Positions 19,701 through 55,637 of a stretch of DNA of 64,000 nucleotides are shown in pieces. How positions within the stretch are numbered: the first letter of the stretch is position 1; each line of letters starts with the position of its first letter. The position numbers were made by a program, and so were the translations under genes. This stretch comes from a bacterium. GTDB lineage: Bacteria; Patescibacteriota; Minisyncoccia; Sungbacterales; HO2-52-23. Location: positions 4,686 through 68,685 of the forward strand of contig JAUYPE010000006.1 in NCBI GenBank assembly GCA_030697705.1. The letters are read 5' to 3'. Under the pieces are notes generated by a model that was not told the origin of the DNA, ran no database searches, and was given only the letters and a program-made list of their open reading frames with translations.

Positions 19701-21557
19701 ATGTGCGGCATTATCGGTTACATCGGTAAACGGCAAGCGCTGCCTCTCCTTGTGGAGGGATTACGGCGCATGGAGTACCGCGGGTACGACTCGGCTGGCG
19801 TCGCGGTTGCCATGCCGTCAGGTATTTTTACCGCGCATGCGGTGGGGATGATAAATGCGCTCGATGAGAAACTCGCGGCGTTATCCGGCCTGGCGGGAAC
19901 GCTGGGTATTGGCCATACGCGCTGGGCGACGCACGGCGGCGTGACGGAACAAAACGCCCACCCGCACGCCGACTGTACGGGGGACGTTTGGGTCGCGCAT
20001 AACGGCATTATTGAAAATTATAGTGAGTTGAAAAATGAGCTTACGGCGCGCGGGCATGTCTTTCGTTCCGAGACGGATACCGAGGTTCTGCCGCATTTGA
20101 TTGAAGAGGCGGCGCGCGCGTATCCGGAGGCGGGGCTCGGCGAGCAGGTTCGAGTGGCACTGCAAAAGATTATCGGTACCTACGGGATTGTTGTTCTTGA
20201 CCGGCGCGCGCCCGAAACGCTGATTGCGGCGCGCAACTTCAGTCCGCTTTTGATTGGTATCGGAGGTGGCGGTATTGGCGACGGAGAATATTTCGTCGCC
20301 TCGGACGCTTCGGCGGTGCTCAAACACACCAAAGAAGTTATTTATTTGGATGACGGTGAGATCGCTGTGCTCACGCCGCGTGGACATCATGTCTCGGATC
20401 TCGGCCGCAACACGCGGACAAAAACCTCGGAGCGCATTGAGTGGACGGATGATGAGGTCAAAAAAGACGGCTATGCGCACTTTATGCTCAAAGAAATTCA
20501 CGGCGAGCCGGAGGCGATTGAGAATTCCATTCGCGGGCGCATTGTTTTGGAAGAGGGAGGCGCGAGACTGGGCGGTCTGGCTGATGCGCTCGGCGTTCTG
20601 CGGGAGGCGCAAAGAATACTCATCGTCGGTTGCGGGACGGCGTATCATGCGGGGCGCATCGGTGAATATATGCTGGAAGAGTACGCAAGCATTCCCGTAG
20701 AGACCGATATCGCCTCCGAATTTCGCTACCGCAAGCCGGTGTTTCGTCCTGGTGATGTGCTCCTCGCCATCTCGCAGTCGGGCGAGACGGCTGACACGCT
20801 CGCCGCCGTGCGTGAGGCGAAGCAAAAAGGCGTTTTCACTCTCGGCATCGTGAATGTCGTCGGCTCCAGTATCGCGCGGGAAACTCATGCGGGTGTGTAC
20901 CAGCATATCGGTCCGGAGATTGGCGTCGCCTCCACCAAAGCATTCACCTCGCAGGTTGCCATTCTTGCCCTGCTCACGCTTCTCGTCGGTCGCCAGCGCG
21001 ACATGTCGCTTGTGACGGGCGAGCGCATCGGGAGTGAGCTGAAAAAAATCCCCGACCTTATGCGGGAGATTCTCAAGCAAGAGCGTGCGATTAAAAAAAT
21101 CGCGGCGAAATATAAAAATGCGCAAAACTTCTTTTTCCTCGGGCGCAAATATAATCTTCCCGTCGCGCTGGAGGGCGCATTGAAATTAAAAGAAATCTCG
21201 TATGTCCATGCCGAGGGGTGCGGCGCGGGGGAGTTGAAGCATGGGCCGATTGCGATGATTGATAAGCACCTGCCTTCCATCTGTATCGTCCCGCACGACT
21301 CAACCTACGAAAAAATGATCTCCAATATGGAGGAGATTCGTGCCCGCAAAGGTCCCATTATTGCCATCGCAACGGAGGGCGACGAGCGCGTACAGACAAT
21401 CGCCGATGATGTCATCTATATTCCCAAAACACTGGAGATGCTTACCCCGCTCCTTTCAGTCATACCGCTCCAGCTTTTCGCGTATCATTTCGGTGTCCAG
21501 CATGGCCATGACGTTGACAAACCCCGCAATCTCGCCAAGTCCGTGACGGTGGAATAG
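19701..21557 (+). CDS. glmS: glutamine--fructose-6-phosphate aminotransferase
   Basis: MCGIIGYIG N-terminal Cys amidotransferase start; two SIS domains; C-terminal ...KPRNLAKSVTVE. Confidence 0.9.
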   Translation: MCGIIGYIGKRQALPLLVEGLRRMEYRGYDSAGVAVAMPSGIFTAHAVGMINALDEKLAALSGLAGTLGIGHTRWATHGGVTEQNAHPHADCTGDVWVAHNGIIENYSELKNELTARGHVFRSETDTEVLPHLIEEAARAYPEAGLGEQVRVALQKIIGTYGIVVLDRRAPETLIAARNFSPLLIGIGGGGIGDGEYFVASDASAVLKHTKEVIYLDDGEIAVLTPRGHHVSDLGRNTRTKTSERIEWTDDEVKKDGYAHFMLKEIHGEPEAIENSIRGRIVLEEGGARLGGLADALGVLREAQRILIVGCGTAYHAGRIGEYMLEEYASIPVETDIASEFRYRKPVFRPGDVLLAISQSGETADTLAAVREAKQKGVFTLGIVNVVGSSIARETHAGVYQHIGPEIGVASTKAFTSQVAILALLTLLVGRQRDMSLVTGERIGSELKKIPDLMREILKQERAIKKIAAKYKNAQNFFFLGRKYNLPVALEGALKLKEISYVHAEGCGAGELKHGPIAMIDKHLPSICIVPHDSTYEKMISNMEEIRARKGPIIAIATEGDERVQTIADDVIYIPKTLEMLTPLLSVIPLQLFAYHFGVQHGHDVDKPRNLAKSVTVE

Positions 21558-22036
21558 GGTTGTGATAAGCATGGGATCAAGAGAAGCATGGTGCACCAAC
21601 TAAAAAATCCATCCGGAAAGATAGATTTTCTAGCGTGGAGCCAAGGGGAATCGGACCCCTCTATCCGAGTTGTTGATCACGGATCCCTCCCAAAGGTGGC
21701 CCCTCGGGCTCCACAAAAGTATGGTATCATTTTTAAAACAAAAAGAAAGCCCGAGATCGCTCTCGGACATTCGGGATCCTCTTGAATCCGTGATCAACAT
21801 AATCAGTGTACTCCTAGCGGTAGGAGAGTGTCAAGTGTCATCACTGGCAGTGGCTTAATTGAAAATTGCGATGCAATGGCATAGATAGAGAGTTATTATA
21901 ATGTATTAGTGGTAGATGTCAATGACTTTTGAGTTTATCCACAGGCATACTTGGCACCATTGCATGACAGGGCAAGAGCCCTTGCCCACTTTCAAATTAC
22001 CCTGCGGATAATGTGGATCATTGGTCTGCCTTTTTT

Positions 22037-23143
22037 ATGAAGCTTTACGAGTACGAAGGAAAGGAATTGTTCAAGAAATATAATATTCCCGTGCCGAAGG
22101 GAGTGGTTGTTTCGCGTGGGGAGGAGGTGCCGGATGGGGACGAGCCCGTGTTTCTCAAAGCGCAGGTAAAGTCGGGAGACAGGAAAAAAGAAGGGGGGAT
22201 TCTAGAGGCGAAAAACCACGCCGCGGCGATGAAGGGTGCGTGGGAACTTTTGGATAAGAAAATAAAAGGGGAGCAGGTGGAAAAAGTATTGGTAGAGGAG
22301 CGCGTGGATGCGGCGAAAGAATACTATGTAAGTTTTAGTTACGACTCGGACTATCGTGCGCCGGTGCTTTCGGTCTCAACCAAGGGCGGATCGGGGATTG
22401 CTAAAGCGCATATCGTTCCCGTTGATATGCTCTGGGGCGTGCCGAATTTTTTTCTGCGCGATGCCCTCACCGCGGCGGGATTTCCCCAAGAAGATATCGC
22501 GGGCGTGAGCCGCGTGGCGCAGAGCTCGTACTCCCTTTTCATCAAAGAATACGCGCTTCTTGCCGAGATGAATCCGTTATTCAAAACGAAAGATGGCGCG
22601 TTTGTTGCCGGAGACGCAAAAATAATTCTGGATGACGAGAAATATAATCCCGGCGAGCGGAGATTTTTGGACATGGATGGAGATATCGCGGTATTGGCAT
22701 CAGGGGGCGGCGCGTCGCTTTTGAATATGGATGCGCTCTTGCGATGCGGCGGCCGGCCGGCAAATTATACCGAATACTCGGGAAATCCCAAGAGCGATGT
22801 GGTCAAAGAATTGACGAAACGCGTGTTAAGTCGTCCGGGGCTCAAAGGATGCTGGGTGGTGGGCGGGACGGCGAACTTTACCGATATTTATGAAACGCTA
22901 AAAGGATTTTTGGATGGTTTGCGGGGAGTTACACCGAAGCCGAATTACCCGATCGTTATCCGTCGTGACGGGCCGCGTCGTGCCGAGGCGTTTGCCATGC
23001 TCAAAGAAGTTAGTGAAAAAGAAGGGTATGATTTTCATCTATTCGGATCCGATACGGCAATGGCGGATACGGCAAAGATTATGGTACGGGAGGCGTATGG
23101 GAAAAAGAAGAGATCGCCGCGCGGTTCTCAAAAAACAGCATGA
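22037..23143 (+). CDS. SucC-like ATP-grasp subunit (succinyl-CoA synthetase beta / citryl-CoA synthetase / ACL B-type subunit)
   Basis: MKLYEYEGKELFKKYNIPVPKG matches the SucC N-terminus MNLHEYQAKQLF..YG.P.P; ATP-grasp then CoA-ligase domain; 368 aa. Confidence 0.75.
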   Translation: MKLYEYEGKELFKKYNIPVPKGVVVSRGEEVPDGDEPVFLKAQVKSGDRKKEGGILEAKNHAAAMKGAWELLDKKIKGEQVEKVLVEERVDAAKEYYVSFSYDSDYRAPVLSVSTKGGSGIAKAHIVPVDMLWGVPNFFLRDALTAAGFPQEDIAGVSRVAQSSYSLFIKEYALLAEMNPLFKTKDGAFVAGDAKIILDDEKYNPGERRFLDMDGDIAVLASGGGASLLNMDALLRCGGRPANYTEYSGNPKSDVVKELTKRVLSRPGLKGCWVVGGTANFTDIYETLKGFLDGLRGVTPKPNYPIVIRRDGPRRAEAFAMLKEVSEKEGYDFHLFGSDTAMADTAKIMVREAYGKKKRSPRGSQKTA

Positions 23144-24045
23144 GTATTTTGATTGATAAAAAAACACGAATCCTTATTCAGGGTATCACTGGTAACGAAG
23201 GAGCGCGCGCGTGCCGCGAGGCACTGGCGTATGGGACAAAAGTTCTTGCCGGTGTGACGCCGGGAAAGGGCGGACAGAGAGTGGAGGGTGTTCCGGTGTA
23301 CAACACAATTGCCGAGGCGATGCGCATACACGCCGCGATAAATACCTCGCTCATCGTCGTGCCCGGAGTGTTCGTCAAAGATGCGGCACTTGAGGCGATT
23401 CATGCGCGTATTCCGCTCATTGTGATACTGACTGAACATGTACCGGCGGCGGACGCGGCATTGATAGTGCACACCGCGCGGCGGTATGGCGTGCGAATTG
23501 TCGGACCCTCATCCATCGGCATCATCTCGCCGGGAAAGGCAAAAATCGGAAGCATTGGGACGGCTGAAATTGCGCATGTTTTTCGCCCGGGACCGATCGG
23601 TGTTATTTCCAAAAGTGGGGGAATGACGGCCGAGATTGCGGTAGTGCTTGGGCGTGCGGGATTCGGGCAGAGCACCGTGGTCGGCATCGGTGGGGATTTG
23701 ATTATCGGCTCGGATTTTGCCGATCTGCTGGTGCTCTACAAAGATGACCCCGAGACTCGCGCCATTGTTTTATTCGGCGAGGTTGGTGGGACGTACGAGG
23801 AGCGGGCGGCGGAGTATATCGCGCAGGCGAGGTTTAAAAAGCCGGTTGTGGCGCTGATTGCCGGACGGTTTGCGGAGGCGTTGTCGGAAGAGACGGTGCT
23901 CGGGCATGCGGGCGCCATCGTCGCGCGCGGACGGGGAAGTTACGCCTCAAAAATCCGCGCGCTCAAAAAAGCCGGCGTGCATATCGCGTCAAGCGTTGAG
24001 GAGATCCCGCTCATTTTGAAACGGGTTATGGGAAGAAAAAAATAA
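23140..24045 (+). CDS. SucD-like CoA-binding alpha subunit with phosphohistidine motif
   Basis: ILIQGITGNEGA (CoA-binding), GPSSIGIISPGK, phosphohistidine loop VLGHAGAIVA; 301 aa; 4-nt overlap with upstream gene. Confidence 0.8.
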   Translation: MSILIDKKTRILIQGITGNEGARACREALAYGTKVLAGVTPGKGGQRVEGVPVYNTIAEAMRIHAAINTSLIVVPGVFVKDAALEAIHARIPLIVILTEHVPAADAALIVHTARRYGVRIVGPSSIGIISPGKAKIGSIGTAEIAHVFRPGPIGVISKSGGMTAEIAVVLGRAGFGQSTVVGIGGDLIIGSDFADLLVLYKDDPETRAIVLFGEVGGTYEERAAEYIAQARFKKPVVALIAGRFAEALSEETVLGHAGAIVARGRGSYASKIRALKKAGVHIASSVEEIPLILKRVMGRKK

Positions 24046-24051
24046 AGGTTT

Positions 24052-24528
24052 ATGGCGGATAAGAAAAAAATCTTGACGCTCTGTATCATCCGCGAGCCTG
24101 GCAGAGTTTTGCTTGGCATGAAGAAGCGGGGATTCGGCGCCGGCAGGTGGAATGGTTTTGGCGGGAAGGTGTGCGAAGAGGAAACAGTAGAGGCCGCGGC
24201 GCGGAGGGAGTTGTACGAAGAAGCGAGTGTCCGTGTGAAGAAATTAAAAAAAGTTGGCATACTGGACTTCAGTTTTGAGTACAATTCTGATCTGCTGGAG
24301 GTTCATGTTTTTAAGGGGGAGGGCATACGGGGAAATCCTTATGAAAGCGAGGAGATGCGACCCCGGTGGTTTTCACTTGACGAGGTACCCTTTCACGAGA
24401 TGTGGCCGGATGACAAATATTGGTTTCCTTTGTTTCTTGCGGATAAAAGCTTTCGCGGTAGATTCCATTTCGGACCGGATGATATGATCGTGGATCAGGC
24501 GCTTTCCGAAGAAGAAAAAATACGATGA
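24052..24528 (+). CDS. NUDIX hydrolase (MutT/MTH1-like)
   Basis: NUDIX box GFGGKVCEEETVEAAARRELYEEASV. Confidence 0.8.
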   Translation: MADKKKILTLCIIREPGRVLLGMKKRGFGAGRWNGFGGKVCEEETVEAAARRELYEEASVRVKKLKKVGILDFSFEYNSDLLEVHVFKGEGIRGNPYESEEMRPRWFSLDEVPFHEMWPDDKYWFPLFLADKSFRGRFHFGPDDMIVDQALSEEEKIR

Positions 24529-25268
24529 TGAAATGGAAAACGGCAATCAGTACGCATAAAGACGGCGAGTTGTATGTCCGCGGGCATGCGCTTGCCGGTC
24601 TCATTAACAAGCACTCGTTTACCGAGATGATTTTTCTTTTGCTTGCCAAGAGAATGCCGAATGAAAAAGAAGTGAAATTGCTTGATGCTGTCCTGGTTTC
24701 GTGCGCCGAGCACGGTGTTGAAGCACCTTCGGCGTTTTCGGCGCGTGTGTCTGTCTCTACGGGAAATTCGCTTCACGCGGCGTTGGCGGCGGGGATTCTC
24801 GCGACCGGCGAGTGGCATGGCGGCGCGCTTGAAAAAGCCGCGGAATACCTGCAGTCGGAAAAAACTCCCTCACAAATCGTACGGGATGTCAGGGAATCAG
24901 GCGGGCGGCTTGCGGGATTGGGTCACAAGATCTACAAAGACAAAGACCCGCGGGCGGAGCTTTTATTTGCCAAAGCGAAAGAACTGGGATTTTCCGGCAA
25001 CTATGTTCTGCGCATGCACGAGTTACAGAATGAGCTGGAGAAACAAAGCGGAAAAAAACTGCCGATCAATATTGATGGTGCCGGCGCGGCGTTAATTTCC
25101 GAGCTTGGATTTGACTGGCGCTTAGGCAAAGCAATCTTTGTGCTCGGGCGACTGCCGGGGATGATCGCGCATGCGCACGAGGAGATGGTGAATGAAAAGC
25201 CGTATCGTCGCTTCAGTGAAGAAGATGTGGAGTATGTTGGACCGGAGCCGAGAGAAGAATTTTTATGA
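24525..25268 (+). CDS. citryl-CoA lyase-like protein (small citrate-synthase-family protein)
   Basis: GEWHGGALE (the HGG motif of citrate synthase), GLGHKIYKDKDPRAELL matching the citrate-synthase signature G-[FY]-G-H-x-[IV]-x-K-x-D-P-R, and INIDGAGA resembling the NVDFYSG region; 247 aa, like Ccl / the C-terminal domain of ATP-citrate lyase. Confidence 0.7.
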   Translation: MMKWKTAISTHKDGELYVRGHALAGLINKHSFTEMIFLLLAKRMPNEKEVKLLDAVLVSCAEHGVEAPSAFSARVSVSTGNSLHAALAAGILATGEWHGGALEKAAEYLQSEKTPSQIVRDVRESGGRLAGLGHKIYKDKDPRAELLFAKAKELGFSGNYVLRMHELQNELEKQSGKKLPINIDGAGAALISELGFDWRLGKAIFVLGRLPGMIAHAHEEMVNEKPYRRFSEEDVEYVGPEPREEFL

Positions 25269-25696
25269 TTACGTACCGACGCCTTAAAAAAACGGATGCC
25301 GTAACGAGTCGCGCGGTGCATGCGCTGTGTGCCGAACTTTCCAAAGATGCAGGGAAAAATTATTCCGCCGTGCTCCTTGCTCGTGCGGTGAAAGAAAAAA
25401 ACAATTTTATTTGTGCGGCGTATGAACGTGGTGTGCTGGTCGGCATGGCGACACTCGTACATGCCGTAACGTTAAAAGGTATGTGCGGACGCATTGAGGA
25501 TGTGGTCGTACATGAAACCATGCGGGGCAAGGGTGTCGGGCGGGAGCTTATGCGACGTTTAATGAAAGAAGCGCGGCGGCAAAAAATAAAACAGCTGGAG
25601 CTGACGAGTCGTCCGAAGCGCACCGCGGCAAACAAACTCTATCAATCACTCGGATTCACGATACGGGAAACAAATGTTTACCGTATGATGCTATGA
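25265..25696 (+). CDS. GNAT-family N-acetyltransferase
   Basis: RIEDVVVHETMRGKGVGRELMRRLMKEAR acetyl-CoA binding motif A (Q/RxxGxG/A). Confidence 0.7.
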   Translation: MITYRRLKKTDAVTSRAVHALCAELSKDAGKNYSAVLLARAVKEKNNFICAAYERGVLVGMATLVHAVTLKGMCGRIEDVVVHETMRGKGVGRELMRRLMKEARRQKIKQLELTSRPKRTAANKLYQSLGFTIRETNVYRMML

Positions 25697-26364
25697 AGAA
25701 AAAACAGCTGACAGCGCGGGCACTTCTTTGCGTTTTGGATTTTGACGGTGTGCTGTTTGATGACGGGAAATTCAAAGAGGCGCACCAAAGAGCGTTTAAG
25801 CGATACGGTGTTTCACCGCGCCTCTATGAGGATATCTATCATGAGGCAAAGCGGTTAACGGGCGGACATTACGCACCGCCGATCCATTACGCGCTCATCT
25901 CTCGGCGTGTGCCTTTGTTGTCTCGCGCGCTTCTCCATAAAAAAAGTGCGACTCTCGTCAGGCAGTCACGGCAGTATTTGTATGCGGATGTAAAACCGTT
26001 TCTTCAGTGGTGTGATGAGTCAGATGTGGTTCTGGCACTCGTGAGCACCGGTCACTCTTTTCAAAAGAAAAAAATTTCGGCAAGCGGTCTTGCGCCGTTT
26101 TTTAAAAAAACAGTCGTAACGAAAGATATTTCAAAAGTCGCGGGGATACGCGCGGTCATGGGGAAGGTAGGACATCGGCGAGTTGTGTTTGTAGATGACA
26201 AGCATAAGGTACTTGATGAGGTTAAAAGAGAACTTCCCGAAGTATTTACCGTCAGGATGGAGCGGCATAAGCGGGAAGCGGATGAGCGGGTCGATGAGAG
26301 CGTTCGCAACTTTGCGGGAGTCAAAAAAATAATCCATGCCATCAAAACAAAAAGCGCATTATAA
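25693..26364 (+). CDS. HAD-superfamily hydrolase
   Basis: Motif I DFDGVL, motif II LVSTG, motif IV FVDDK. Confidence 0.6.
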   Translation: MKKKQLTARALLCVLDFDGVLFDDGKFKEAHQRAFKRYGVSPRLYEDIYHEAKRLTGGHYAPPIHYALISRRVPLLSRALLHKKSATLVRQSRQYLYADVKPFLQWCDESDVVLALVSTGHSFQKKKISASGLAPFFKKTVVTKDISKVAGIRAVMGKVGHRRVVFVDDKHKVLDEVKRELPEVFTVRMERHKREADERVDESVRNFAGVKKIIHAIKTKSAL

Positions 26365-27346
26365 AAAAACAAAACTGCCGCGCGTTGTCGCCATAGGCGG
26401 GGGGCATGGCACTGCGGTTGTTTTGGAAGGGCTCCGCGACTATCCGGTTGATGTCTCGGCGATTGTCTCTATGGCGGATGACGGCGGCTCAAGCGGCATA
26501 CTCCGCCGCGAGCTGGGAGTTCTGGCGCTGGGCGATGTGCGGAGGGCTCTAGTTGCGCTTGCGGGTGATGAGTGTCGCCTGCTTGCAGATATAGCCGAGT
26601 ATCGCTTTACCAAAGGCGCGCTTGCGGGGCATGCTCTCGGCAATCTGATGCTGGTGGCGCTGGAGCGCATGACAGGATCATTTTCCAAGGGTCTCCATGC
26701 GGCGCATGAACTTTTTGGCGTGCGCGGACATGTCATACCCGTTACGCTTGAGTCGGCGGAATTATGCGCTGAATATGCCGATGGTTCTGTCGTACGCGGT
26801 GAGAAAAACATTGATATGCCGAAACGCGCCATTGTCCCTGCCATCCGGCGCGTATGGCTGGAGCCGAACGCGTCTCCGAATCCTGAAGCATTGGTCGCGA
26901 TCCGCAGTGCCGATGTGATTATATTCGGACCGGGGGATCTCTATACCAGTATCGTACCGAATATCTTGGTGCGCGGTGTTGCGGAGGCGATTAAAAAATC
27001 ATCCGCCAAAAAAATAATGATCGTAAACTATCGCACTAAGCGAAGCGAAACAAACGGTTTTTCCGCCACGGACTTTGTGCGAGAGCTTGAGCGGTATCTC
27101 GGTGAAGGTGTGCTTGATGTCGCACTGTGTGCAATAACGCGCGTGTCGCCGGACCGGCTGGCGGAAATGTTACGCGAAGGAGGGGAGCCGGTTTCGTACG
27201 CGGATCGCGGCGTCTCGCGCGCACAGCTGATCATCCGCTCTCTTTTAACAACGCGCGGTATTCTGCGGCATGATCCCAAAAAACTCGCCCGTGCGATCAT
27301 GGCTCTTTTACCGGCGAAACAAAAAAATGGAAATCGTCGCGCTTGA
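26336..27346 (+). CDS. YvcK/CofD-family protein (gluconeogenesis factor / UPF0052)
   Basis: VVAIGGGHGTAVVLEGL...VSAIVSMADDGGSSG matches the YvcK signature GGGTG...ADDGGSSG. Confidence 0.75.
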   Translation: MPSKQKAHYKKTKLPRVVAIGGGHGTAVVLEGLRDYPVDVSAIVSMADDGGSSGILRRELGVLALGDVRRALVALAGDECRLLADIAEYRFTKGALAGHALGNLMLVALERMTGSFSKGLHAAHELFGVRGHVIPVTLESAELCAEYADGSVVRGEKNIDMPKRAIVPAIRRVWLEPNASPNPEALVAIRSADVIIFGPGDLYTSIVPNILVRGVAEAIKKSSAKKIMIVNYRTKRSETNGFSATDFVRELERYLGEGVLDVALCAITRVSPDRLAEMLREGGEPVSYADRGVSRAQLIIRSLLTTRGILRHDPKKLARAIMALLPAKQKNGNRRA

Positions 27347-28727: not shown

Positions 28728-28931
28728 ATGAAAAAATCTACGCTCCCTATCATTGATGTCAAAAAATATGGCGGTAAACAGGTGGCGATTGTGAGAGGAA
28801 AAATCGTTGCGTCTGGCGACTCAACGCGAGAGGTGCTTGTGCGCGCACGGCGGAAGGTTTCCCCTAAAGACAAGAATGCTATCTGGTTACTTACTGTCCC
28901 GCGAGGGCTTACAATGGTTTATCGTTTATGA
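28728..28931 (+). CDS. small hypothetical protein (partner of retropepsin-like protease)
   Basis: 67 aa, MKKSTLPIIDVKKYGGKQVAIVRGKIVASGDS...; 4-nt overlap with downstream protease gene. Confidence 0.4.
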   Translation: MKKSTLPIIDVKKYGGKQVAIVRGKIVASGDSTREVLVRARRKVSPKDKNAIWLLTVPRGLTMVYRL

Positions 28932-29377
28932 CGCTCGTAATACCATACGGAATACGGTTGGCGGGGGATGAAGGGCGGGTTGAAACGGTGCCGGTAGCGT
29001 ATATTCGAGTGCGATATGGTGCTTTCGAAATCCCCGGAATTTTTGTCGTTGATTCAGGAGCAACTACGACTCTTTTGCCCGCTTCCGATGCTGACGAGCT
29101 GGGAATTTCTTTGAAGAAGGGTGGGGAACGAGTCGCGATACAGGGCGCTACTGGTCATGTACTTATGGGATGTCGTCATAGGGTTGATATGGTCATTGAT
29201 AATTTTTTTCTCCATGCCGTACCGGTTATTTTTGCGCGAGCAAAAAACATCCCTCGCGTACTCGGTCGCGAGGGCGTGTTTTCGCGATTTGGGATTCTTT
29301 TTGACGAAGCACGACGGCGTACTGCACTACTTGATGCTCATAAAGAACGAAAAGCCATTGACGGTTTGTTATCATAA
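28928..29377 (+). CDS. retropepsin-like (clan AA) aspartic protease
   Basis: IFVVDSGATTTLL: the D-S/T-G-A catalytic motif with hydrophobic-hydrophobic-D context of retroviral-type aspartyl proteases; 149 aa. Confidence 0.65.
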   Translation: MTLVIPYGIRLAGDEGRVETVPVAYIRVRYGAFEIPGIFVVDSGATTTLLPASDADELGISLKKGGERVAIQGATGHVLMGCRHRVDMVIDNFFLHAVPVIFARAKNIPRVLGREGVFSRFGILFDEARRRTALLDAHKERKAIDGLLS

Positions 29378-35766: not shown

Positions 35767-36120
35767 CCTACAGATTTATTAAAAAAAGTCAGTTACCCGC
35801 GAGAGCGCACAAGTGTCCTCGAACAAATGCCAGGGGTGGAGATTGTAGAACAGAACATTCAGGTTGATCACATCCACACCGTGATGATCATCCCATCCAA
35901 GTATGCGGTAAGCGCGGTGGTCGCACAACTGAAGGCGAAGAGTGCCGGAAGGCTGCGGAAAAAGTTTGTATGGCTTGATAAGATGTATTGGAAAGAACTG
36001 AACATCGTTTGGTCGCCTGGCTTCTTTGTTGCTACCGTGGGACTGGACGAGAAACACATTATTCACTATGTCAGATGGCAACAACGCCAGGATTCAGGAC
36101 AGTTAAAACTGAATTTTTGA
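35767..36120 (+). pseudogene. tnpA: IS200/IS605-family Y1 transposase TnpA, 5'-truncated relic
   Basis: VEIVEQNIQVDHIHTVMIIPSKYAVSAVVAQLKAKSAGRLRKKFVWLDKMYWKELNIVWSPGFFVATVGLDEKHIIHYVRWQQ: HuH (HIH) and catalytic-Tyr region of IS200 TnpA. The N-terminal beta-strand (xYHxVWCPKYRR) is absent; folC begins on the opposite strand at 35758 and would overlap it. Confidence 0.7.
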
Positions 36121-36185
36121 TTCAGTTTTAACCTTGTTTTCCGCCACCGCCGAATTTCGCGCCAGTGAAACTGGCGCACCTCCTA

Positions 36186-37115
36186 CTAGCTGTTCATTAT
36201 AAATTCTATAATAGCGTAGGTCGCCCAAAAAACCAAAAGCATATATCCTTCCTTTTTTGTGATTATTCGTCCCGAACGCATAAAATGCAGAAGCACAAGT
36301 GAAGCGACTACCATAAATGCTCCTGTGATATAAACAATTTTTATAGGAAAAAAGAAAGGACTAATGAGAGAAAGAACTCCCACGACAATAGTTGCGTCTG
36401 CCAGCACCGACCCTAAAATATCACCAATCGCTAGTCCGTCATCCTTTCTCTTTATCGATTTGAGCGAATAAAACAATTCCGGCATCGTCGTCCCAAAACT
36501 AACAACAAGCATAGCAATAAGAATCGGCGTTATTTTCAGTGCGTGGGCTAACTCGATTGCTGAGGTTACTGTAAAGTGCGCGCCGACCAACAAAAGAGCC
36601 ATGGCAAAAAGCAGAAGAGTAAAATTTTTATATTTTCCGCTCCCATCGTGTGACCTCTCCGATACCTCTCTGCTGTTTTTAAAAACAAGATAGTAAAAAA
36701 GCGTACCAGCAATAATAAGAGCCGCACCCTCAACTCGGGAATAGTGACCGTTTAGTCCAAAGACAAGCGGTAGTAAGAGAAAAAACGGGTATAGGTGGAC
36801 ATGTTTTAATATCTTGCTTTCAATTTTTATTCCTCGTCTGGCGTATATGCTTAAAATTGCGAAAATGAGCGTCAAGTCGGCAATATTTGATCCGAACAAT
36901 GTGCCGAGACCGAACTCGGGGATTCCTTCAACCACTGAACTTATTGCAATGAGCGTTTCAGGCAAAATTGAAATAAAGGCGACTATGATAAAACTGATAA
37001 TGTATTTTGGGAGATGAAAATTTCTCGCAAGTTTTGTGGAATATTTAGTGGCCAGCGTCGCGCCCCTAACAACCAGAAGTAATGAAAAGATGAAAATTAA
37101 AAGATTTTCTATCAT
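36186..37115 (-). CDS. Ca2+/cation antiporter (CaCA family, YrbG-like)
   Basis: Two alpha-repeat signatures GSNIADLTL and GDILGSVLAD; about 10 TM; 309 aa. Confidence 0.75.
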   Translation of the reverse strand: MIENLLIFIFSLLLVVRGATLATKYSTKLARNFHLPKYIISFIIVAFISILPETLIAISSVVEGIPEFGLGTLFGSNIADLTLIFAILSIYARRGIKIESKILKHVHLYPFFLLLPLVFGLNGHYSRVEGAALIIAGTLFYYLVFKNSREVSERSHDGSGKYKNFTLLLFAMALLLVGAHFTVTSAIELAHALKITPILIAMLVVSFGTTMPELFYSLKSIKRKDDGLAIGDILGSVLADATIVVGVLSLISPFFFPIKIVYITGAFMVVASLVLLHFMRSGRIITKKEGYMLLVFWATYAIIEFIMNS

Positions 37116-37246
37116 GATTGTTTCCTAAAAGATAATGTGCAGCTTTTTAATTTCTTTTGAACTAGACCATCCCGGCTGGCTTACTGGTCGGAGGTTTATC
37201 TCAAAATTCATAATTTCATATGCATAAGACCCATTGCCGCATACTT

Positions 37247-37930
37247 TTATGAATGACTTTGCGCCTTACGGTAAAACCAATATCCTCCTCCTGCCATAAT
37301 GCCCGTGGTCAAGAGATAGCCCAGTATGATGAGAAACGGGTGCGCAGTAATATATGCCGACAGCAGACTGCCAAAAGCGACCAGGAGTGCCGCGGGTCCA
37401 ATTCCTATAGGCACAAGCAGAGCAAGAAATTTCCAAAAGGGCATAGTGGTAAGTCCGGCGGCATAGGTTACTCCCTCCGGAAATGAAAAGAAAACAAGGC
37501 GCGCATGAATAAGACCGCGCGGCGTTCCCAAATAGGCGAGAATGATATCAATGATCTTCATGCCTGGTTTTGTAACAAAATACTGCACGACTTTTCGTCC
37601 GAATATGCGGCTGATGAAAAACGCAATGGCACTTCCTAAAAGATCGCCTAAAGATGTGTAGATAAAGCCATGCCAAAAACCGAATGCGGCTCCCGCAATC
37701 GGGTAGAGCGGGGATCCGCCAAGAGGAGCAATAACCAACGTGGATGCTTTGAGCAGAATGACGATAAAAGGTCCCCAAATGCCCGCCGCCGCAATCCGTT
37801 CGCGCGTTTCGCTTATGCCTAAAAATTGCGCAAAGAAATAAATTGCGGCGATGGTAAGACCAAGCCAGAGTATGTTGAGCATCGTCTCTTGATAGCCGGC
37901 TTTTACGCCTTTCAGCTGAATTTTTGACAT
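37247..37930 (-). CDS. DedA/TVP38-family membrane protein
   Basis: 227 aa polytopic; FPEGVTYAAGLT and GxxxxGxxxY motifs typical of DedA/SNARE-associated family. Confidence 0.75.
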   Translation of the reverse strand: MSKIQLKGVKAGYQETMLNILWLGLTIAAIYFFAQFLGISETRERIAAAGIWGPFIVILLKASTLVIAPLGGSPLYPIAGAAFGFWHGFIYTSLGDLLGSAIAFFISRIFGRKVVQYFVTKPGMKIIDIILAYLGTPRGLIHARLVFFSFPEGVTYAAGLTTMPFWKFLALLVPIGIGPAALLVAFGSLLSAYITAHPFLIILGYLLTTGIMAGGGYWFYRKAQSHS

Positions 37931-38091
37931 AACTACTGGGATATTCTTATGTCAATATCCTGGGGTTTGGCGTTTCCTCGCCTTCAGGCGAAGGCTTCAG
38001 CAGGTTAGTTCTCGTTCATTCCTTATTTTGCCTGTTGTCCATCGTATTCAGACGGTCACTGGGAACCTGTGTACTTTTAGCGCACAGTGGT

Positions 38092-38484
38092 TCAATTGGC
38101 GACACAAGTTCCGTCAAAAAATCCAAAAGGTGGCTCAAGGTCAATAGCAAGCGTTTTGCTTAACTTAGAGAAATTTCCCTTAAGTGTTTTTTGCGGATAT
38201 GTTTCGAAAATCTGAAGTTGGTCGCCCGCTTCTTCAATGTGTCCGTAGTATTCAACCCATTCATTCGGAATCTCTAAGTTGATTGAGCCATTGGAATCGC
38301 TCCTAACCCATGGTCTATATTCCGTTAATTTCATATAGACGGTCATAGGTCGAGTGGTGCCATTGAGAGATATTTCACCAGAGCATTGGAAACTTGATTC
38401 TACCTCAGAAAAGTTGGCAGCAAAGAAAAACAAAACAACAATGCCCAATACGCCAGACCCAACATATTTGAGTGATTTTTTCAT
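38092..38484 (-). CDS. hypothetical secreted protein
   Basis: Signal peptide MKKSLKYVGSGVLGIVVLFFFAANF; 130 aa; no domain recognised. Confidence 0.45.
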   Translation of the reverse strand: MKKSLKYVGSGVLGIVVLFFFAANFSEVESSFQCSGEISLNGTTRPMTVYMKLTEYRPWVRSDSNGSINLEIPNEWVEYYGHIEEAGDQLQIFETYPQKTLKGNFSKLSKTLAIDLEPPFGFFDGTCVAN

Positions 38485-38553
38485 AGATTTATTTTTTATG
38501 GTTTAATGCTCCCCAACACCATGTAGTAAAAGATACGCCTAATGTCAAAATTA

Positions 38554-39303
38554 TCATTTAGTGGGCGAGGGGAGAGTCGAACTTTCACTTGCTCTCGTGT
38601 ACTCTCTTCGCTTTTCAGTTGAGAAAATTGCTAAAGTATTTTGTGCGATCATCCACTTTCTTTGCAGGCAAGGTAATCCTTCTTGATAATACATCCAGCT
38701 CAGTAAGTTTATAGAATCTTTCTTCGCGAATTTGAGTTGCCACATACTTGTTGTTTGGTCTTTTCGCGTTGGCTTTTCTTCGTTTAGGTGTCCCTTTATG
38801 GCAAAAATTCTTTCCATATTTTTCTGTATCCATTCCATGTGCTCTTGACTCGCAGATAGAAATCTAACAAATAGGCGGGTATAGGTATATTTCGGATTCT
38901 TATATGTATTATAGTAATCAGTGTATGTAGAGATTGATCCGTCGCCATCCAAGTGTCCCCGAAGAAAGTCGGCGAAATAATCGTCAGGAATTTTTATCTT
39001 CCCAATGGTGTAGGTTTTCGCAGGAAACAGGCCAATCGTGAGTAACCAATTATAGAACTGAATATTACCGAACTGGACTCTATAACTGGGCTTCGTTGCG
39101 TACCCATTATTATGAGACACCGCCATTTTATTTTGAATGCCAAGGCATCGCCTAAATGTCTTTAGTTGTTCTGTTTCAGATGAACGCATTATGATATGCC
39201 TACCATCTTTTGAAAGACATCCATCAGTAACAAGAAGCCCCACCGCATAAGCAAGCTCTGATGTCCATAAAAACTCTTTTTCCGGCAATTTCATTTTTGC
39301 CAT
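38554..39303 (-). CDS. LAGLIDADG-family homing endonuclease (two-motif monomeric type)
   Basis: Motif 1 LAYAVGLLVTDGCLS and motif 2 FLRGHLDGDGSIS; start placed at MAKMKL (ATG complement 39301..39303) because the upstream part of the ORF is the tRNA-Leu gene read as protein. Confidence 0.8.
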   Translation of the reverse strand: MAKMKLPEKEFLWTSELAYAVGLLVTDGCLSKDGRHIIMRSSETEQLKTFRRCLGIQNKMAVSHNNGYATKPSYRVQFGNIQFYNWLLTIGLFPAKTYTIGKIKIPDDYFADFLRGHLDGDGSISTYTDYYNTYKNPKYTYTRLFVRFLSASQEHMEWIQKNMERIFAIKGHLNEEKPTRKDQTTSMWQLKFAKKDSINLLSWMYYQEGLPCLQRKWMIAQNTLAIFSTEKRREYTRASESSTLPSPTK

Positions 39304-39309
39304 AAAGTA

Positions 39310-39393
39310 TGGGCGAGGCGGGATTTGAACCCGCACGGGATTACTCCCACACGATTTTGAGTCGTGATCGTCTGCCAATTCCGACACTCGCCC
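39310..39393 (-). tRNA. tRNA-Leu (anticodon CAA), class II with long variable arm
   Basis: Manual fold: acceptor GGGCGAG/CTCGCCC + A73; D-arm TCG-GAATTGGCAGA-CGA; anticodon stem CACGA/TCGTG with loop CTCAAAA (CAA); variable arm GGGAGTAATCCC; T-arm GCGGG-TTCAAAT-CCCGC; no encoded CCA. Confidence 0.85.
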
Positions 39394-39442
39394 ATTTCAC
39401 GGTTGATGATAGGATAAAAATCTGCTAAAGTAAAGGTATTCT

Positions 39443-40327
39443 ATGCAGAGCAAACTTCCTCAACGAACAAAAAAATTATGCCTTTGTGGATGTGGTGAGG
39501 TGCTCAAAATCCATGAATATACTCGACGGGATAGTGGCGGAGTAAGTTATCTTGTTTATAATTTTGTCATAGGCCATAGCAAGCGGGGCATAAACGGATT
39601 TAATATGGAAATCCACCGTTCGCGCTTATGTCAGTGTGGGTGCGGACAATATACCACAAAGTTCAGAGGACGCCATAATCGTTTTATGAGGAAACACGAG
39701 AATAATGGAAGAGTCCCGTGGAATAAAGGGAAGGCGTTTTCTGATGAAGTAAGAAAAAAGATGAGTCTGGCAAGACTAGGGAAGGAGCCGGCGAACAAGA
39801 CGGTAATAGATTTAATTGCGCTCCATAGACATTATATACATGAAAAAAAGACGATCTCTACGGTGAGTAGGGAGATTAATATTTTAACGGATGCAATTAA
39901 AAATAGACTGCGGGCTTTGGGATGGAGCCGTACCACAAAAGAATCATGTGCGACGGATGCATTTCGTGAGCAGATGCGACAGATAAGAATAAAAACATTG
40001 ACTTCTCGGCAAGCAATAGAGAGTCCAAATAAACTTGAGAAATCAGTGTATGAAGCATTGGATCGGATGAATATCCCCTACGAAAAACAGGTGCCGCTTT
40101 TCGGCAAGTTCGTAGTGGATGTTTTGTTTCCTCAACAGCATCTAGTGCTTGAAATTTTCGGGAGATATTGGCATCGTATGCCTCAAAATGTGAGAAAGAA
40201 CTATTCAAAAAAGAAATACTTGGAAAAATGTGGTTACCGAGTTGAAGAAGTTTGGGATAACGAAATTAAGGAAAAAGGAGTTGATTCTGTGTTGGAGAAA
40301 GTTGTAGAGAAATATGCATTAATATGA
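39443..40327 (+). CDS. homing-endonuclease-like protein: duplicated CxCGCG zinc knuckles + NUMOD3 motif + C-terminal DUF559/Vsr-like PD-(D/E)xK nuclease domain
   Basis: LCLCGCGEV and LCQCGCGQY knuckles; NUMOD3-like VPWNKGKAFSDEVRKKMSLARLGK; C-terminal FVVDVLFPQQHLVLEIFGRYWH...YLEKCGYRVEEVWDNEI resembles DUF559/Vsr endonuclease fold; stop overlaps parA start (ATGA). Confidence 0.6.
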   Translation: MQSKLPQRTKKLCLCGCGEVLKIHEYTRRDSGGVSYLVYNFVIGHSKRGINGFNMEIHRSRLCQCGCGQYTTKFRGRHNRFMRKHENNGRVPWNKGKAFSDEVRKKMSLARLGKEPANKTVIDLIALHRHYIHEKKTISTVSREINILTDAIKNRLRALGWSRTTKESCATDAFREQMRQIRIKTLTSRQAIESPNKLEKSVYEALDRMNIPYEKQVPLFGKFVVDVLFPQQHLVLEIFGRYWHRMPQNVRKNYSKKKYLEKCGYRVEEVWDNEIKEKGVDSVLEKVVEKYALI

Positions 40328-41100
40328 CTCGCGTCTTAAGTGTATGTAACTTTAAGGGTGGTGTTGGAAAATCAACAACGACGCAGAATCTCGCCGTCTT
40401 TCTTTCTGCTCTTGGCTCGCGCGTGCTGGTGGTTGATATGGATCCGCAGGCGAATGCGACCTCGGGTATGGGACTCAATCCCCGGCGGCTCCGACACTCG
40501 CTCTACGACGCGCTCATCGGTCGCACATCCGCAGAGGAGATCATAAAAAAAACGGGACTCTCGGGCGTGGATATGCTTCCCGCGGTTGCGGCGATGGCGG
40601 GGGCGGGGATTGAGTTGGTTGACATGCCGAATCGCGAGTATAAACTGAAAGAGGTTCTCGCGCCCCTGCGCGACCAGTATGACTTTATCATTATTGATTC
40701 GCCGCCGAGCATGGGACTCCTTACGCTCAACGCGTTGACGGCCGCTTCACGCATTATCATTCCCGTGCAGTGCGAGTATTATGCACTGGAAGGACTTGCC
40801 GATCTTTTGGGGACGATTCAAATGGTGAACGCAAATTTAAAGGTGAAGATCTGCATTATGGGCGCACTGCTCACGATGTATGACCAAAAGTCGCGATTGC
40901 ATCGGGAGGTTGCCGAGGAGATTCGGCGAAAATTTCGCGGCTATGTGTTTAACGCCGTTATTCCGCGCAATGCTTCTCTTGCGGAAGCGCCGTCTTTTGG
41001 AAAAACTATTTTACAATACGATCCCTACAGCCACGGGGCGAAAGCGTATCGCGCGCTTGCCGAAGAGGTTTTACAGCTGGAGGGCTTGCGGGCGGTGTGA
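40324..41100 (+). CDS. parA: chromosome partitioning ATPase ParA/Soj
   Basis: Deviant Walker A NFKGGVGKSTTTQNLA; ...VVDMDPQANATSG...; 258 aa. Confidence 0.9.
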   Translation: MTRVLSVCNFKGGVGKSTTTQNLAVFLSALGSRVLVVDMDPQANATSGMGLNPRRLRHSLYDALIGRTSAEEIIKKTGLSGVDMLPAVAAMAGAGIELVDMPNREYKLKEVLAPLRDQYDFIIIDSPPSMGLLTLNALTAASRIIIPVQCEYYALEGLADLLGTIQMVNANLKVKICIMGALLTMYDQKSRLHREVAEEIRRKFRGYVFNAVIPRNASLAEAPSFGKTILQYDPYSHGAKAYRALAEEVLQLEGLRAV

Positions 41101-55636: not shown

Positions 55637-55637
55637 T

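Follow-up and report, generated by a model that had tools for sequence, protein, structure and literature searches.

The four genes at positions 22037-25268 of the window, that is, the whole 64-kb stretch of DNA analyzed here, are best read as a two-step citrate cleavage system that probably supplies acetyl-CoA for sugar acetylation, with a NUDIX gene as a passenger. All of them lie on the + strand and encode, in this order, a large (22037-23143, 368 aa) and a small (23140-24045, 301 aa) subunit of a predicted ligase, a NUDIX protein (24052-24528, 158 aa), and a citrate synthase (CS)-like protein of 247 aa (24525-25268), the candidate citryl-CoA lyase. A GTG at 22013 could act as an alternative start of the first gene, although the ATG at 22037 is favored because homologues begin there with MKLxExEGK. 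The genes are intact and translationally coupled: the two subunit genes overlap by 4 nt (ATGA), 6 nt separate the small subunit from the NUDIX gene, and the latter overlaps the lyase gene by 4 nt. The overlaps run on downstream into genes for a GNAT protein (4 nt), a HAD protein (4 nt), and a YvcK protein (29 nt). The close packing claimed in a preliminary description of this DNA is thus confirmed, and the motifs it had named, GHAGA, HGG, and the CS signature, were all found at the residues given below.

The large subunit is well supported by sequence comparison as a putative beta-like subunit of citryl-CoA synthetase, combining an ATP-grasp domain with a citrate-binding domain of the ATP-citrate lyase (ACL) type. 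It matches the Pfam families ATP-grasp_2 (110.9 bits, far over the cut-off) and Citrate_bind (PF16114, 81.5 bits against a cut-off of 26.8). In Pfam terms, a citrate-binding domain of the ACL/CCS type replaces the Ligase_CoA domain of SucC, and the protein fails the NCBIfam SucC model with 173 bits, the cut-off being 370. Its best whole-chain match in the PDB is CcsA from Hydrogenobacter thermophilus (6HXQ_B, E = 4e-42). The C-domain alone is closest to AclB from Chlorobium (8.5e-25), followed by CcsA (3e-20), human ACLY (3e-14), and SucC (3e-11), whereas the ATP-grasp half scores higher with Thermus SucC (92.5 bits) than with CcsA (72.3 bits). When the AlphaFold model was used in a fold search, Thermus SucC (2e-34) ranked just above CcsA (1e-32), with AclB at 3e-23, so the overall shape is non-discriminating.

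The motifs of the large subunit include SGGGAS (aa 222-227), NYTEYSGNP (243-251), ANFTD (279-283), and IRRDGP (308-313), while the SucC-type C-domain motifs NGAGL, NFLDxGGGA, and FGGIxR are missing. Residues G249, N280, T282, and R309-R310 are among those invariant across the aligned large-subunit homologues (n = 15). Counted along the alignment, G309, N346, T348, and R379 of human ACLY, which we take to be the citrate ligands in PDB 3MWD, fall on G249, N280, T282, and R310 of the window protein. In NJ trees, the large subunit falls outside canonical CcsA instead of being nested in it. Fragments of the AclB C-domain scored 121-130 bits on profiles built from CPR/DPANN sequences, compared to 70 on the canonical CCS profile, and those of ACLY scored 76-87 bits, compared to 50.

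The small subunit would be the alpha-like partner, holding the CoA-binding and phosphohistidine domains, an assignment that rests on operon linkage since the protein is indistinguishable from SucD by sequence. It matches CoA_binding and Ligase_CoA/Succ_CoA_lig in Pfam, far over the cut-off, and its GHAGA motif (aa 255-259, nt 23902-23916) contains the catalytic histidine. Against the NCBIfam SucD model it reaches 306 bits, under the cut-off of 336. Its PDB matches are led by SucD (2YV2, 2e-87), ahead of CcsB (6HXQ_A, 1e-67) and AclA (6HXJ_B, 2e-45), identities are 48-49% with SucD and 42% with a CcsB, and the tree does not separate it from SucD. In the related loci, the small-subunit gene always lies between those of the large subunit and Ccl.

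The CS-like protein is well supported, again by comparison with known families, as a predicted citryl-CoA lyase with a citrate-synthase fold devoid of its N-terminal part. Pfam Citrate_synt, again far over the cut-off, covers it with the C-terminal portion of the profile only (positions 162-355 of 357). It passes the NCBIfam citryl-CoA lyase model (NF004869, 270.9 bits against a cut-off of 212) and stays far under the cut-off of every NCBIfam citrate-synthase model, the methylcitrate/citrate synthase II model giving 118 bits. The closest structure is Ccl from H. thermophilus (6HXP, 2.4e-66), the best citrate synthase reaching 5e-29. Identity amounts to 46% with that Ccl, 40% with a Leptospirillia Ccl, and 29% with E. 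coli GltA, and the protein scores 227 bits with free Ccl versus 60 with the CCL module of AclA. The HGG motif occupies aa 98-100 and the CS signature GLGHKIYKDKDPRAELL aa 131-147 (nt 24915-24965); the candidate catalytic residues are H98 (HGG), H134 (GLGHKIYK), and D184 (NIDG). The form of about 240 aa is kept in more than 60 loci, which argues against a decaying citrate synthase. Profile cut-offs, PDB matches, and the Citrate_bind domain therefore support the earlier suggestion of a CcsAB plus Ccl system or split ACL over a succinyl-CoA synthetase accompanied by a truncated CS. The contrary outcome considered there, with the CS-like protein among citrate synthases and the ligase subunits inside the succinyl-CoA synthetase clade, was not found for the lyase and the large subunit, while the small subunit is inseparable from SucD.

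The NUDIX protein matches its Pfam family far over the cut-off and is, from its sequence, of the MTH1/NUDT1 type, that is, a predicted 8-oxo-dGTP/2-OH-dATP diphosphatase. Its identity to human MTH1 is 57% over 150 aa (E = 1e-55), with the Nudix box at aa 37-60, WPDD (Trp117/Asp119/Asp120 in MTH1) at 118-121, and RWNGFGGK (the Asn33 region) retained. The two proteins differ in that the window protein is bacterial, encoded inside a citrate-cleavage operon, and of predicted function. None of 80 other loci has a NUDIX gene at this position; it occurs in the operon only in an 89%-identical relative and is missing from that place in a 73% relative, while MTH1-type proteins are common at other places in CPR genomes. 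The gene is a passenger that entered the operon in this lineage, outside the mechanism, and its earlier reading as a hint of CoA housekeeping does not hold.

Upstream of the module lies glmS (19701..21557, + strand; glutamine--fructose-6-phosphate transaminase, NF001484, 787.5 bits against a cut-off of 381), with the start set at the Met-Cys of MCGIIGY. The spacer between them (21558..22036) measures 479 bp where the 89%-identical relative has just 53 bp, and returned no match in an Rfam search. Its minus strand has a perfect TTGACA-16-TATAAT at 21922-21895, and the spacer also contains a terminator-like hairpin at 21768-21749. This lineage-specific spacer may separate transcription units here. 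Downstream, and on the same strand, the GNAT acetyltransferase (25265..25696, 143 aa, Acetyltransf_1), whose start overlaps the Ccl stop, is a probable consumer of acetyl-CoA. In a profile search against the PDB, glucosamine-6-phosphate N-acetyltransferases appear at 3e-11 to 2e-8, below the top and among many GNATs, and this search does not support assigning the protein to them. It is followed by a HAD-superfamily hydrolase or mutase (25693..26364, 223 aa, HAD_2) and a YvcK/CofD-related UDP-GlcNAc-binding protein (26336..27346, 336 aa, TIGR01826, 304.8 bits against a cut-off of 196). No GlmU-like gene is present in the 64-kb window, and the surroundings of the module showed no citrate transporter. 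Searches of the 64-kb window by tblastn with GltA, SdhAB, and SucABCD from E. coli recovered module genes only, as did those with IDH and aconitase from Leptospirillia, in agreement with the claim that no other TCA genes occur in it.

The three-gene module is found in at least 311 GTDB species genomes, mostly of Patescibacteria and DPANN, and is not, as had been thought, unexpected in a reduced genome. Among 80 loci, the large subunit, small subunit, and Ccl are colinear in 62 according to clustering and in a larger number according to BLAST, with the colinear loci spanning 38-63% large-subunit identity. Amino-sugar-type neighbors occur within 7 kb in 56 of the 80, a figure that overstates the number of independent events because CPR neighborhoods are partly inherited in small, syntenic genomes. 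These comprise 36 loci with UDP-GlcNAc-type neighbors (GlmS, YvcK, GlmU-like, GNAT) and 20 with other amino-sugar or glycan genes, in at least eight gene orders from Parcubacteria, Kerfeldbacteria-like lineages, Woesebacteria, and DPANN. GlmS lies within 7 kb in 27 loci (directly upstream in 17), YvcK adjoins the module in 21, GNAT orthologues in 12, and the HAD gene recurs in eight. YvcK, GlmS, and WbuX pass their cut-offs, Arch_glmU reaches 270 bits against a cut-off of 292, and DegT, GDP-mannose dehydratase, GT2, and Acetyltransf_3 were found through Pfam. Four loci include acetyl-CoA-forming enzymes, either Tdh and Kbl or an acetylating acetaldehyde dehydrogenase with an aldolase. No TCA gene, aconitase and IDH included, adjoins the module in the 80 loci. 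The nucleotide-sugar role suspected from the GNAT and HAD genes is strengthened by this conserved linkage to GlmS, YvcK, and GlmU-like genes.

In the proposed mechanism, the two subunits would form an ADP-forming citryl-CoA synthetase. ATP bound on the ATP-grasp domain would phosphorylate the GHAGA histidine of the small subunit, and the phosphoryl group would pass to citrate held in the ACL-type domain. CoA bound to the small subunit would then attack citryl-phosphate to give citryl-CoA, which the free-standing lyase would cleave into acetyl-CoA and oxaloacetate by means of the citrate-synthase fold's His/His/Asp triad. The cell would scavenge the citrate, either from a host or from its environment, and use the acetyl-CoA to acetylate amino sugars of the cell envelope, for example UDP-GlcNAc, at N or O; oxaloacetate would be a by-product. 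The lack of a visible TCA cycle, together with the conserved GlmS, YvcK, GNAT, HAD, and GlmU-type neighbors, makes this supply of acetyl-CoA for amino-sugar acetylation the most likely physiological role.

Since ACL and CCS/CCL catalyze reversible reactions close to equilibrium, and the sequence fixes no direction, the same enzymes could instead run backwards, as the preliminary description had already raised. The lyase would condense acetyl-CoA and oxaloacetate to citryl-CoA, and the ligase would release ATP and citrate, giving a fermenter a step of substrate-level phosphorylation in the manner of an ATP-yielding citrate synthase. The acetyl-CoA-forming enzymes of the four loci could feed such a route instead of working alongside the module as parallel sources. 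However, a C4 acid would be spent for the same ATP as is gained from converting acetyl-CoA to acetate, the citrate would have no visible sink (neither aconitase nor IDH appears in the window or the 80 loci), and conserved neighbors that consume acetyl-CoA or belong to hexosamine metabolism fit supply better than disposal, making the reverse route unlikely. A related acid such as 2-methylcitrate, homocitrate, malate, or another hydroxy-acid, yielding a different pair of acyl-CoA and keto-acid, is a somewhat less probable substrate still. The clade does stand apart from both characterized groups, ACL and the CCS of Aquificae and Leptospirillum, and methylcitrate synthases belong to the citrate-synthase family; but the four positions that align with citrate ligands of ACLY show no variation, and the lyase, so close to a characterized Ccl, scores far higher on the citryl-CoA lyase model than on that of methylcitrate/citrate synthase II.

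Participation in a reductive TCA (rTCA) cycle, complete here or shared between symbiont and host, is very improbable. CCS/CCL is the signature of the rTCA variant of Aquificae and Leptospirillum, and a preprint discusses a syntrophic rTCA cycle for DPANN/CPR homologues (bioRxiv 10.1101/2022.10.25.513756). Against this, no TCA or rTCA gene was found in the 64-kb window or beside the module in the 80 loci, CPR and DPANN genomes are reported without the cycle, and in a true rTCA organism the cluster runs CcsA-CcsB-IDH-Ccl-aconitase. Least credible of all is an ordinary SucCD accompanied by a citrate synthase that is truncated and possibly in decay. Many of the homologues are named in this sense by JGI and NCBI ("succinyl-CoA synthetase beta subunit", or else "ATP-grasp domain-containing protein"), and the SucD-like small subunit and the top rank of Thermus SucC in the fold search agree with it. 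It is already contradicted by the profile cut-offs: the large subunit falls far short of the SucC model and has Citrate_bind in place of the SucC-type C-domain motifs, and the CS-like protein passes the Ccl cut-off in a short form that is widely kept.

Citrate-cleavage homologues in CPR and DPANN are already known from the same 2022 preprint, which places sequences carrying SCS or CS annotations with CCS/CCL. For a Gracilibacterium, the consulted part of an earlier study describes a fused, two-subunit "ATP citrate lyase", "rarely detected in CPR", and proposes that external citrate is made into acetyl-CoA plus oxaloacetate (Sieber et al. 2019, mBio, PMC6851277). The consulted passages of these two sources make no mention of a breadth of at least 311 genomes, of unfused ACL-type motifs, or of the GlmS/YvcK/GlmU linkage, and the literature searched did not yield the hexosamine link.

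Compared to the CcsA/CcsB and Ccl of Hydrogenobacter thermophilus and Leptospirillum (6HXQ, 6HXP), the window system shares the three polypeptides with an unfused lyase, the GHAGA loop, the 46% lyase identity, and CcsA as the best whole-chain match. However, the solved H. thermophilus chains are longer (429, 353, and 268 residues against 368, 301, and 247), those of a Leptospirillia MAG having 434, 322, and 264 aa, and canonical CcsA has a PF24948 segment that most CPR large subunits, the one in the window included, lack. The citrate-domain motifs are of the ACL type (ASGGGAS, NYTEYSGNP, ANFTD) instead of the CCS type (FGGGGS, NFTDIGGNP, ANNTR), the canonical CCS are separate in NJ trees, and their context is IDH and aconitase, whereas that of the window clade is hexosamine or glycan genes.

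With ACL (AclA/AclB from Chlorobium, 6HXJ; human ACLY, 3MWD/6HXH) it shares the overall predicted chemistry, the ACLY ligand-aligned residues, and, in AclB, the nearest PDB relative of the large-subunit C-domain. ACL, however, has its small subunit and CCL module fused, whereas the window genes are separate with a NUDIX gene between them, the lyase is nearer to free Ccl than to AclA, and the small subunit is nearer to SucD than to AclA. As proposed for the window system, eukaryotic ACLY does not serve carbon fixation: the cytosolic acetyl-CoA that it makes goes into acetylation and the synthesis of hexosamines. With SucCD, finally, the window proteins share the superfamily and the arrangement in two subunits, and similarity to SucC/SucD is at least as high as to CcsA/CcsB in the ATP-grasp half and the small subunit. 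They differ in that both subunits fall under the SucC/SucD cut-offs, the large-subunit C-domain is of the citrate-binding type, and a citryl-CoA lyase gene always accompanies a pair of this kind.

The preliminary description proposed an operon for split citrate cleavage at 22037-25268, and its four genes are all real and intact. They lie on the forward strand and encode a large subunit (22037-23143, 368 aa), a small subunit (23140-24045, 301 aa), a NUDIX hydrolase (24052-24528, 158 aa) and a protein resembling citrate synthase (CS; 24525-25268, 247 aa). The two ligase genes overlap by 4 nt, 6 nt separate the second of them from the NUDIX gene, and the NUDIX and CS-like genes again overlap by 4 nt; overlaps continue into genes for a GNAT (25265-25696), a HAD protein (25693-26364) and the CofD-like protein YvcK (26336-27346), all on the same strand. 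The start of the large subunit is placed at ATG 22037, which fits the conserved N-terminus of the homologues, while GTG 22013 does not. The motifs quoted for these proteins are likewise where they had been placed: the small subunit has GHAGA at aa 255-259, and the CS-like protein has HGG at aa 98-100 and GLGHKIYKDKDPRAELL at aa 131-147. A contig of the Patescibacteria-type MAG GCA_034376815.1 matches the window, whose gene content is typical of that group and includes aminoacyl-tRNA synthetases, FtsA/FtsZ, SHMT, and FolD.

The CS-like protein is a citryl-CoA lyase (Ccl). It scores 270.9 bits against the citryl-CoA lyase model NCBIfam NF004869/PRK06224, above the cut-off of 212, whereas all citrate and methylcitrate synthase models remain far under theirs (best CS-type score 118 bits, against 421). 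Its best PDB match is the Ccl of Hydrogenobacter thermophilus, 6HXP (E 2.4e-66), compared with 4.7e-29 for the top-ranked CS and roughly 1e-15 for the lyase modules of ATP-citrate lyase (ACL), and its sequence is 46% identical to that enzyme, 40% to the Ccl of a Leptospirillia MAG, and 29% to GltA of E. coli. The Pfam Citrate_synt match runs from position 162 to 355 of a 357-position profile and so takes in just the C-terminal two-thirds of the CS fold. The His/His/Asp positions are kept as H98 (HGG), H134 (GLGHKIYK), and D184 (NIDG), and the protein is predicted to cleave (3S)-citryl-CoA without hydrolysis of the thioester.

The large subunit combines an ATP-grasp_2 domain (110.9 bits) with the citrate-binding domain Citrate_bind (PF16114, 81.5 bits); Pfam finds no match in it to Ligase_CoA, the C-domain of SucC, and the protein reaches 173.3 bits on the NCBIfam SucC model, whose cut-off is 370. 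When the whole chain is searched against the PDB, CcsA of H. thermophilus, a subunit of citryl-CoA synthetase (CCS), ranks best (4e-42), with Thermus SucC a close second (2e-37) because the ATP-grasp half is SucC-like. The C-terminal domain alone gives another order, led by Chlorobium AclB (8.5e-25), followed by CcsA (3e-20), human ACLY (3e-14), and SucC (3e-11). In a clean alignment of this domain, the proteins from CPR and DPANN, the small-genome bacterial and archaeal groups holding homologues, share ASGGGAS, PANYTEYSGNP, GGTANFTDI, and IRRDGP with ACL. The corresponding motifs differ in canonical CCS (FGGGGS, ANFTDIGGNP, GGTANNTRI) and in SucC (NGAGL, NFLDxGGGA, FGGIxR). By residue counting along the alignment, G309, N346, T348, and R379 of human ACLY, which we take to be its citrate ligands in PDB 3MWD, align with G249, N280, T282, and R310 of the window protein, and these four are invariant across 15 homologues. 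A fold search based on the AlphaFold-predicted large subunit (pLDDT 84.6, pTM 0.58) did not tell SucC, CcsA, and ACL apart, with domain orientation accounting for an rmsd of ~12-13 Å.

Profile scores and trees agree. The C-domains score 121-130 bits (AclB) and 76-87 bits (ACLY) on CPR/DPANN profiles, against 70 and 50 bits on the canonical CCS profile. The canonical CcsA set, retrieved separately, comes from Aquificae, Nitrospirota, and Leptospirillia, and forms its own clade in neighbor-joining (NJ) trees (support 0.99-1.00), so that the window protein, which falls in a Parcubacteria clade (0.87-0.99), does not group with characterized CcsA. Canonical CCS and SucC stand together against CPR/DPANN and ACL (0.95-0.96), and in the NJ tree of the C-domain, built on a clean 145-column alignment, ACL fragments lie between canonical CCS and the CPR/DPANN group (0.83). 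The architecture is therefore that of CCS plus Ccl, and the citrate-binding domain is ACL-like. An ACL-type domain within an unfused CCS/CCL-type system is put forward as a lead, because the large-subunit trees are distance-based, include few references, and represent ACL by fragments only.

The small subunit consists of CoA-binding and His-loop domains and is not fused to the lyase. It scores 306.1 bits on the NCBIfam SucD model, below the cut-off of 336, and is most similar to SucD (2e-87, 48-49% identity), followed by CcsB (1e-67, 42%) and AclA (2e-45). Its tree lacks resolution, with SucD references scattered among CPR sequences on short branches. The 4-nt overlap with the large-subunit gene ties it to the ligase, and the same gene order is kept in related loci.

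The NUDIX protein is of the MTH1/NUDT1 type, with the corresponding activity predicted. It matches human MTH1 with an E-value of 1e-55 and 57% identity, and keeps the Nudix box, RWNGFGGK, and WPDD; the base-recognition residues compared were the Asn33 region, Trp117, Asp119, and Asp120. Only this organism and an 89%-identical groundwater relative have a NUDIX gene separating the small-subunit and lyase genes; a 73% Sungbacteria relative has none there. Genes of the MTH1 type are common elsewhere in CPR genomes, and in other lineages the same position is occupied by unrelated small genes, mostly for small membrane or unknown proteins, among which no shared functional theme was found. The NUDIX gene is thus a passenger, and the idea that it serves the module as a CoA or nucleotide-sugar pyrophosphatase was rejected on these grounds. 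This strikingly eukaryote-like sanitizer of the nucleotide pool is widespread in CPR, being present in Nomura-, Wildermuth-, Giovannoni-, Buchanan-, Falkow-, Taylor-, and Sungbacteria.

The module itself is far from restricted to this lineage. More than 120 cluster representatives of the large subunit exist at 54% identity or more, and every named one belongs to the CPR (Sung-, Portnoy-, Colwell-, Wildermuth-, and Spechtbacteria, and Minisyncoccia). When GTDB was scanned at one genome per species with two restrictive peptide patterns specific to this type, NY[TV]EYSGN and GDIA[IV]LASG, at least 311 genomes were confirmed to carry the module. The best 80 of these include many Parcubacteria, Microgenomates (~44% identity), DPANN archaea (~38%), and one Acidobacteriota MAG; the record titles "uncultured Saccharibacteria" and "Gammaproteobacteria" among them are probably placeholders.

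In nearly all of these best 80 loci, the genes for the large subunit, the small subunit, and the lyase are colinear, and in none of them do TCA genes adjoin the module. Amino-sugar or glycan-type neighbors lie within 7 kb of it in 56 of the 80, in at least eight gene orders and in lineages whose large subunits share only 38-60% identity. The most frequent is GlmS, present in 27 loci and immediately upstream of the module in 17, followed by a YvcK-type UDP-GlcNAc-binding protein (21), a GlmU-like bifunctional nucleotidyltransferase/acetyltransferase of the archaeal type (18), small GNATs and DegT aminotransferases (12 each), GDP-mannose-dehydratase-type enzymes (11), and HAD proteins and Gfo/Idh/MocA oxidoreductases (eight each). 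GT2 glycosyltransferases, Acetyltransf_3 GNATs, WbuX amidotransferase, LbH sugar acetyltransferases, TviB-like UDP-GlcNAc dehydrogenase, and DltB-like MBOATs also recur. The window follows this pattern in the order GlmS, a 479-bp spacer, the module with its NUDIX gene, GNAT, HAD, and YvcK; no GlmU-like, DegT, epimerase, or glycosyltransferase genes were found in it. YvcK scores 304.8 bits on TIGR01826 (cut-off 196), and the GNAT, considered as a GlcN-6-P N-acetyltransferase of the GNA1 type, matches GNA1 structures in a profile search at 3e-11 to 2e-8, behind an uncharacterized GNAT (1e-18) and a diamine acetyltransferase. A housekeeping role for CoA or nucleotide sugars had been suggested from the NUDIX, GNAT, and HAD genes; the part of that suggestion resting on the NUDIX gene falls away, while the conserved linkage to GlmS, YvcK, and GlmU-like genes upholds the nucleotide-sugar part drawn from GNAT and HAD.

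Four of the loci also carry other acetyl-CoA-forming enzymes beside the module (compared loci L037:7683-10628, L063, L012:5196-7004, and L020:2392-4300), either an L-threonine dehydrogenase-like enzyme (Tdh) with glycine C-acetyltransferase (Kbl), or an acetylating acetaldehyde dehydrogenase with 4-hydroxy-2-oxovalerate aldolase and a TPP enzyme. In three Parcubacteria loci (L024:3639-6998, L025, and L033), GlmS reaches 1118-1119 aa because an intein with a LAGLIDADG homing endonuclease lies inside its glutaminase domain. The spacer between GlmS and CcsA in the window (21558-22036) shrinks to just 53 bp in L083/L084, the relative with 89% identity. The minus strand of the window spacer bears TTGACA-16-TATAAT, a perfect match to the sigma-70 consensus (21922-21895), together with a hairpin resembling a terminator (21768-21749), and could give a transcript of ~150 nt; the spacer has no Rfam match, a fold z-score of -1.3, and no repeat of its sequence in the window.

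Elsewhere in the window, the stretch 36000-40400 has a GC content of 0.41-0.44, against ~0.52 in the rest, and contains tRNA-Leu(CAA) (39309-39394), a LAGLIDADG-like ORF on the minus strand (38554-39387), and, at 39443-40327, an ORF resembling a NUMOD3/DUF559 endonuclease; the stretch is possibly a mobile-element island at a tRNA gene. At 28728-29377, directly downstream of dCTP deaminase, a DUF5678 gene (67 aa) overlaps a gene for a retropepsin-like aspartyl protease (149 aa), a pair kept in the related contigs L001 and L002. Ahead of the gene for a HEPN-domain protein of 390 aa (55948-57120) lies a small ORF (55560-55958) resembling a nucleotidyltransferase (…FGSWAWGTPHEDSDVDLF); the two likely form a HEPN/MNT toxin-antitoxin-type pair, with Pfam confirmation for the HEPN partner only.

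The reading of the module as a two-step citrate-cleavage system, advanced in the preliminary description, is supported by the Ccl score above its cut-off, the Citrate_bind domain in the large subunit, and the SucC and SucD scores below theirs. Judged by family membership and conserved residues, ATP-dependent two-step cleavage is the best-supported function. The ligase would pass from phospho-His through citryl-phosphate to citryl-CoA, which the free lyase would split by retro-Claisen cleavage into acetyl-CoA and oxaloacetate. From the conserved neighborhood and the absence of TCA genes, we infer that the acetyl-CoA, drawn from scavenged citrate, would serve the acetylation of amino sugars for UDP-GlcNAc and other envelope glycans.

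There are four rival readings. The same enzymes working in reverse would constitute an ATP-yielding citrate synthase; nothing in their sequences sets the direction, and the acetylation-related neighbors speak for acetyl-CoA as the product, which leaves reversal unlikely. A substrate other than citrate would be compatible with the grouping of the window protein apart from characterized CcsA, and is less likely still given the four invariant positions aligned with ACLY. A preprint (bioRxiv 10.1101/2022.10.25.513756) states that DPANN and CPR sequences annotated as succinyl-CoA synthetase (SCS) or CS form a monophyletic group with CCS/CCL, and discusses syntrophic rTCA; such a role, possibly a shared one, is very improbable for loci with no adjoining TCA genes. 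The least credible is a plain SCS with a truncated CS, favored by the SucD-like small subunit and rejected on the curated cut-offs and the motifs.

CPR and DPANN have almost no central metabolism, and the module bears on what they must obtain from hosts. Found in at least 311 species-level genomes, it is still labeled "succinyl-CoA synthetase + citrate synthase" or left nameless, and metabolic reconstructions therefore miss an acetyl-CoA route. If the neighborhood reflects function, citrate is scavenged and its acetyl unit is expected in the N-acetyl groups of peptidoglycan or glycans. If the inferred role is wrong, the correct re-annotation of a common gene cluster still stands.

The module belongs to a large, mostly mis-annotated CPR/DPANN clade of the known CCS/CCL type of citrate cleavage. 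Surveys of DPANN report CCS/CCL in a few MAGs, and a 2026 Nanobdellota preprint still tallies "succinyl-CoA synthetase alpha" together with "zero citrate synthase". Sieber et al. 2019 (PMC6851277) describe an ACL of two subunits, from one Gracilibacterium, as "rarely detected in CPR" and propose the use of external citrate. The literature searched yielded no paper that connects the module with GlmS, GlmU, YvcK, or amino-sugar acetylation. Two leads go beyond that literature: an unfused system whose citrate domain is of the ACL type, and the conserved linkage to genes for hexosamine and glycan acetylation.

In an rTCA organism of the Leptospirillia (L087:5001-11305), CcsA, CcsB, IDH, Ccl, and aconitase follow one another on one strand, whereas the CPR module has no such neighbors, and in H. 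thermophilus (L086) ccsA and ccsB are not adjacent, so CcsB for comparison was taken from the Leptospirillia locus. In ACL, the CoA-binding/His subunit carries the lyase module as a C-terminal fusion; in the window, unlike ACL, the small subunit ends at 24045 and the lyase is a separate protein, with the NUDIX gene between them. ACL-type motifs in this three-gene architecture bear on the origin of ACL from a CCS/CCL-like ancestor. A tentative and rather doubtful proposal is that the CPR/DPANN module represents a third citrate-cleaving lineage, an "unfused ACL" with an ACL-type large subunit, a separate SucD-like small subunit, and a free Ccl, acting as a dedicated source of acetyl-CoA for envelope amino-sugar acetylation (the GlmS, GlmU, and YvcK pathway) in ultra-small symbionts without a TCA cycle. 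Were this so, citrate from the host or community would be a key imported metabolite, and the module would offer a prokaryotic parallel to the eukaryotic link from ACLY to hexosamines and acetylation.
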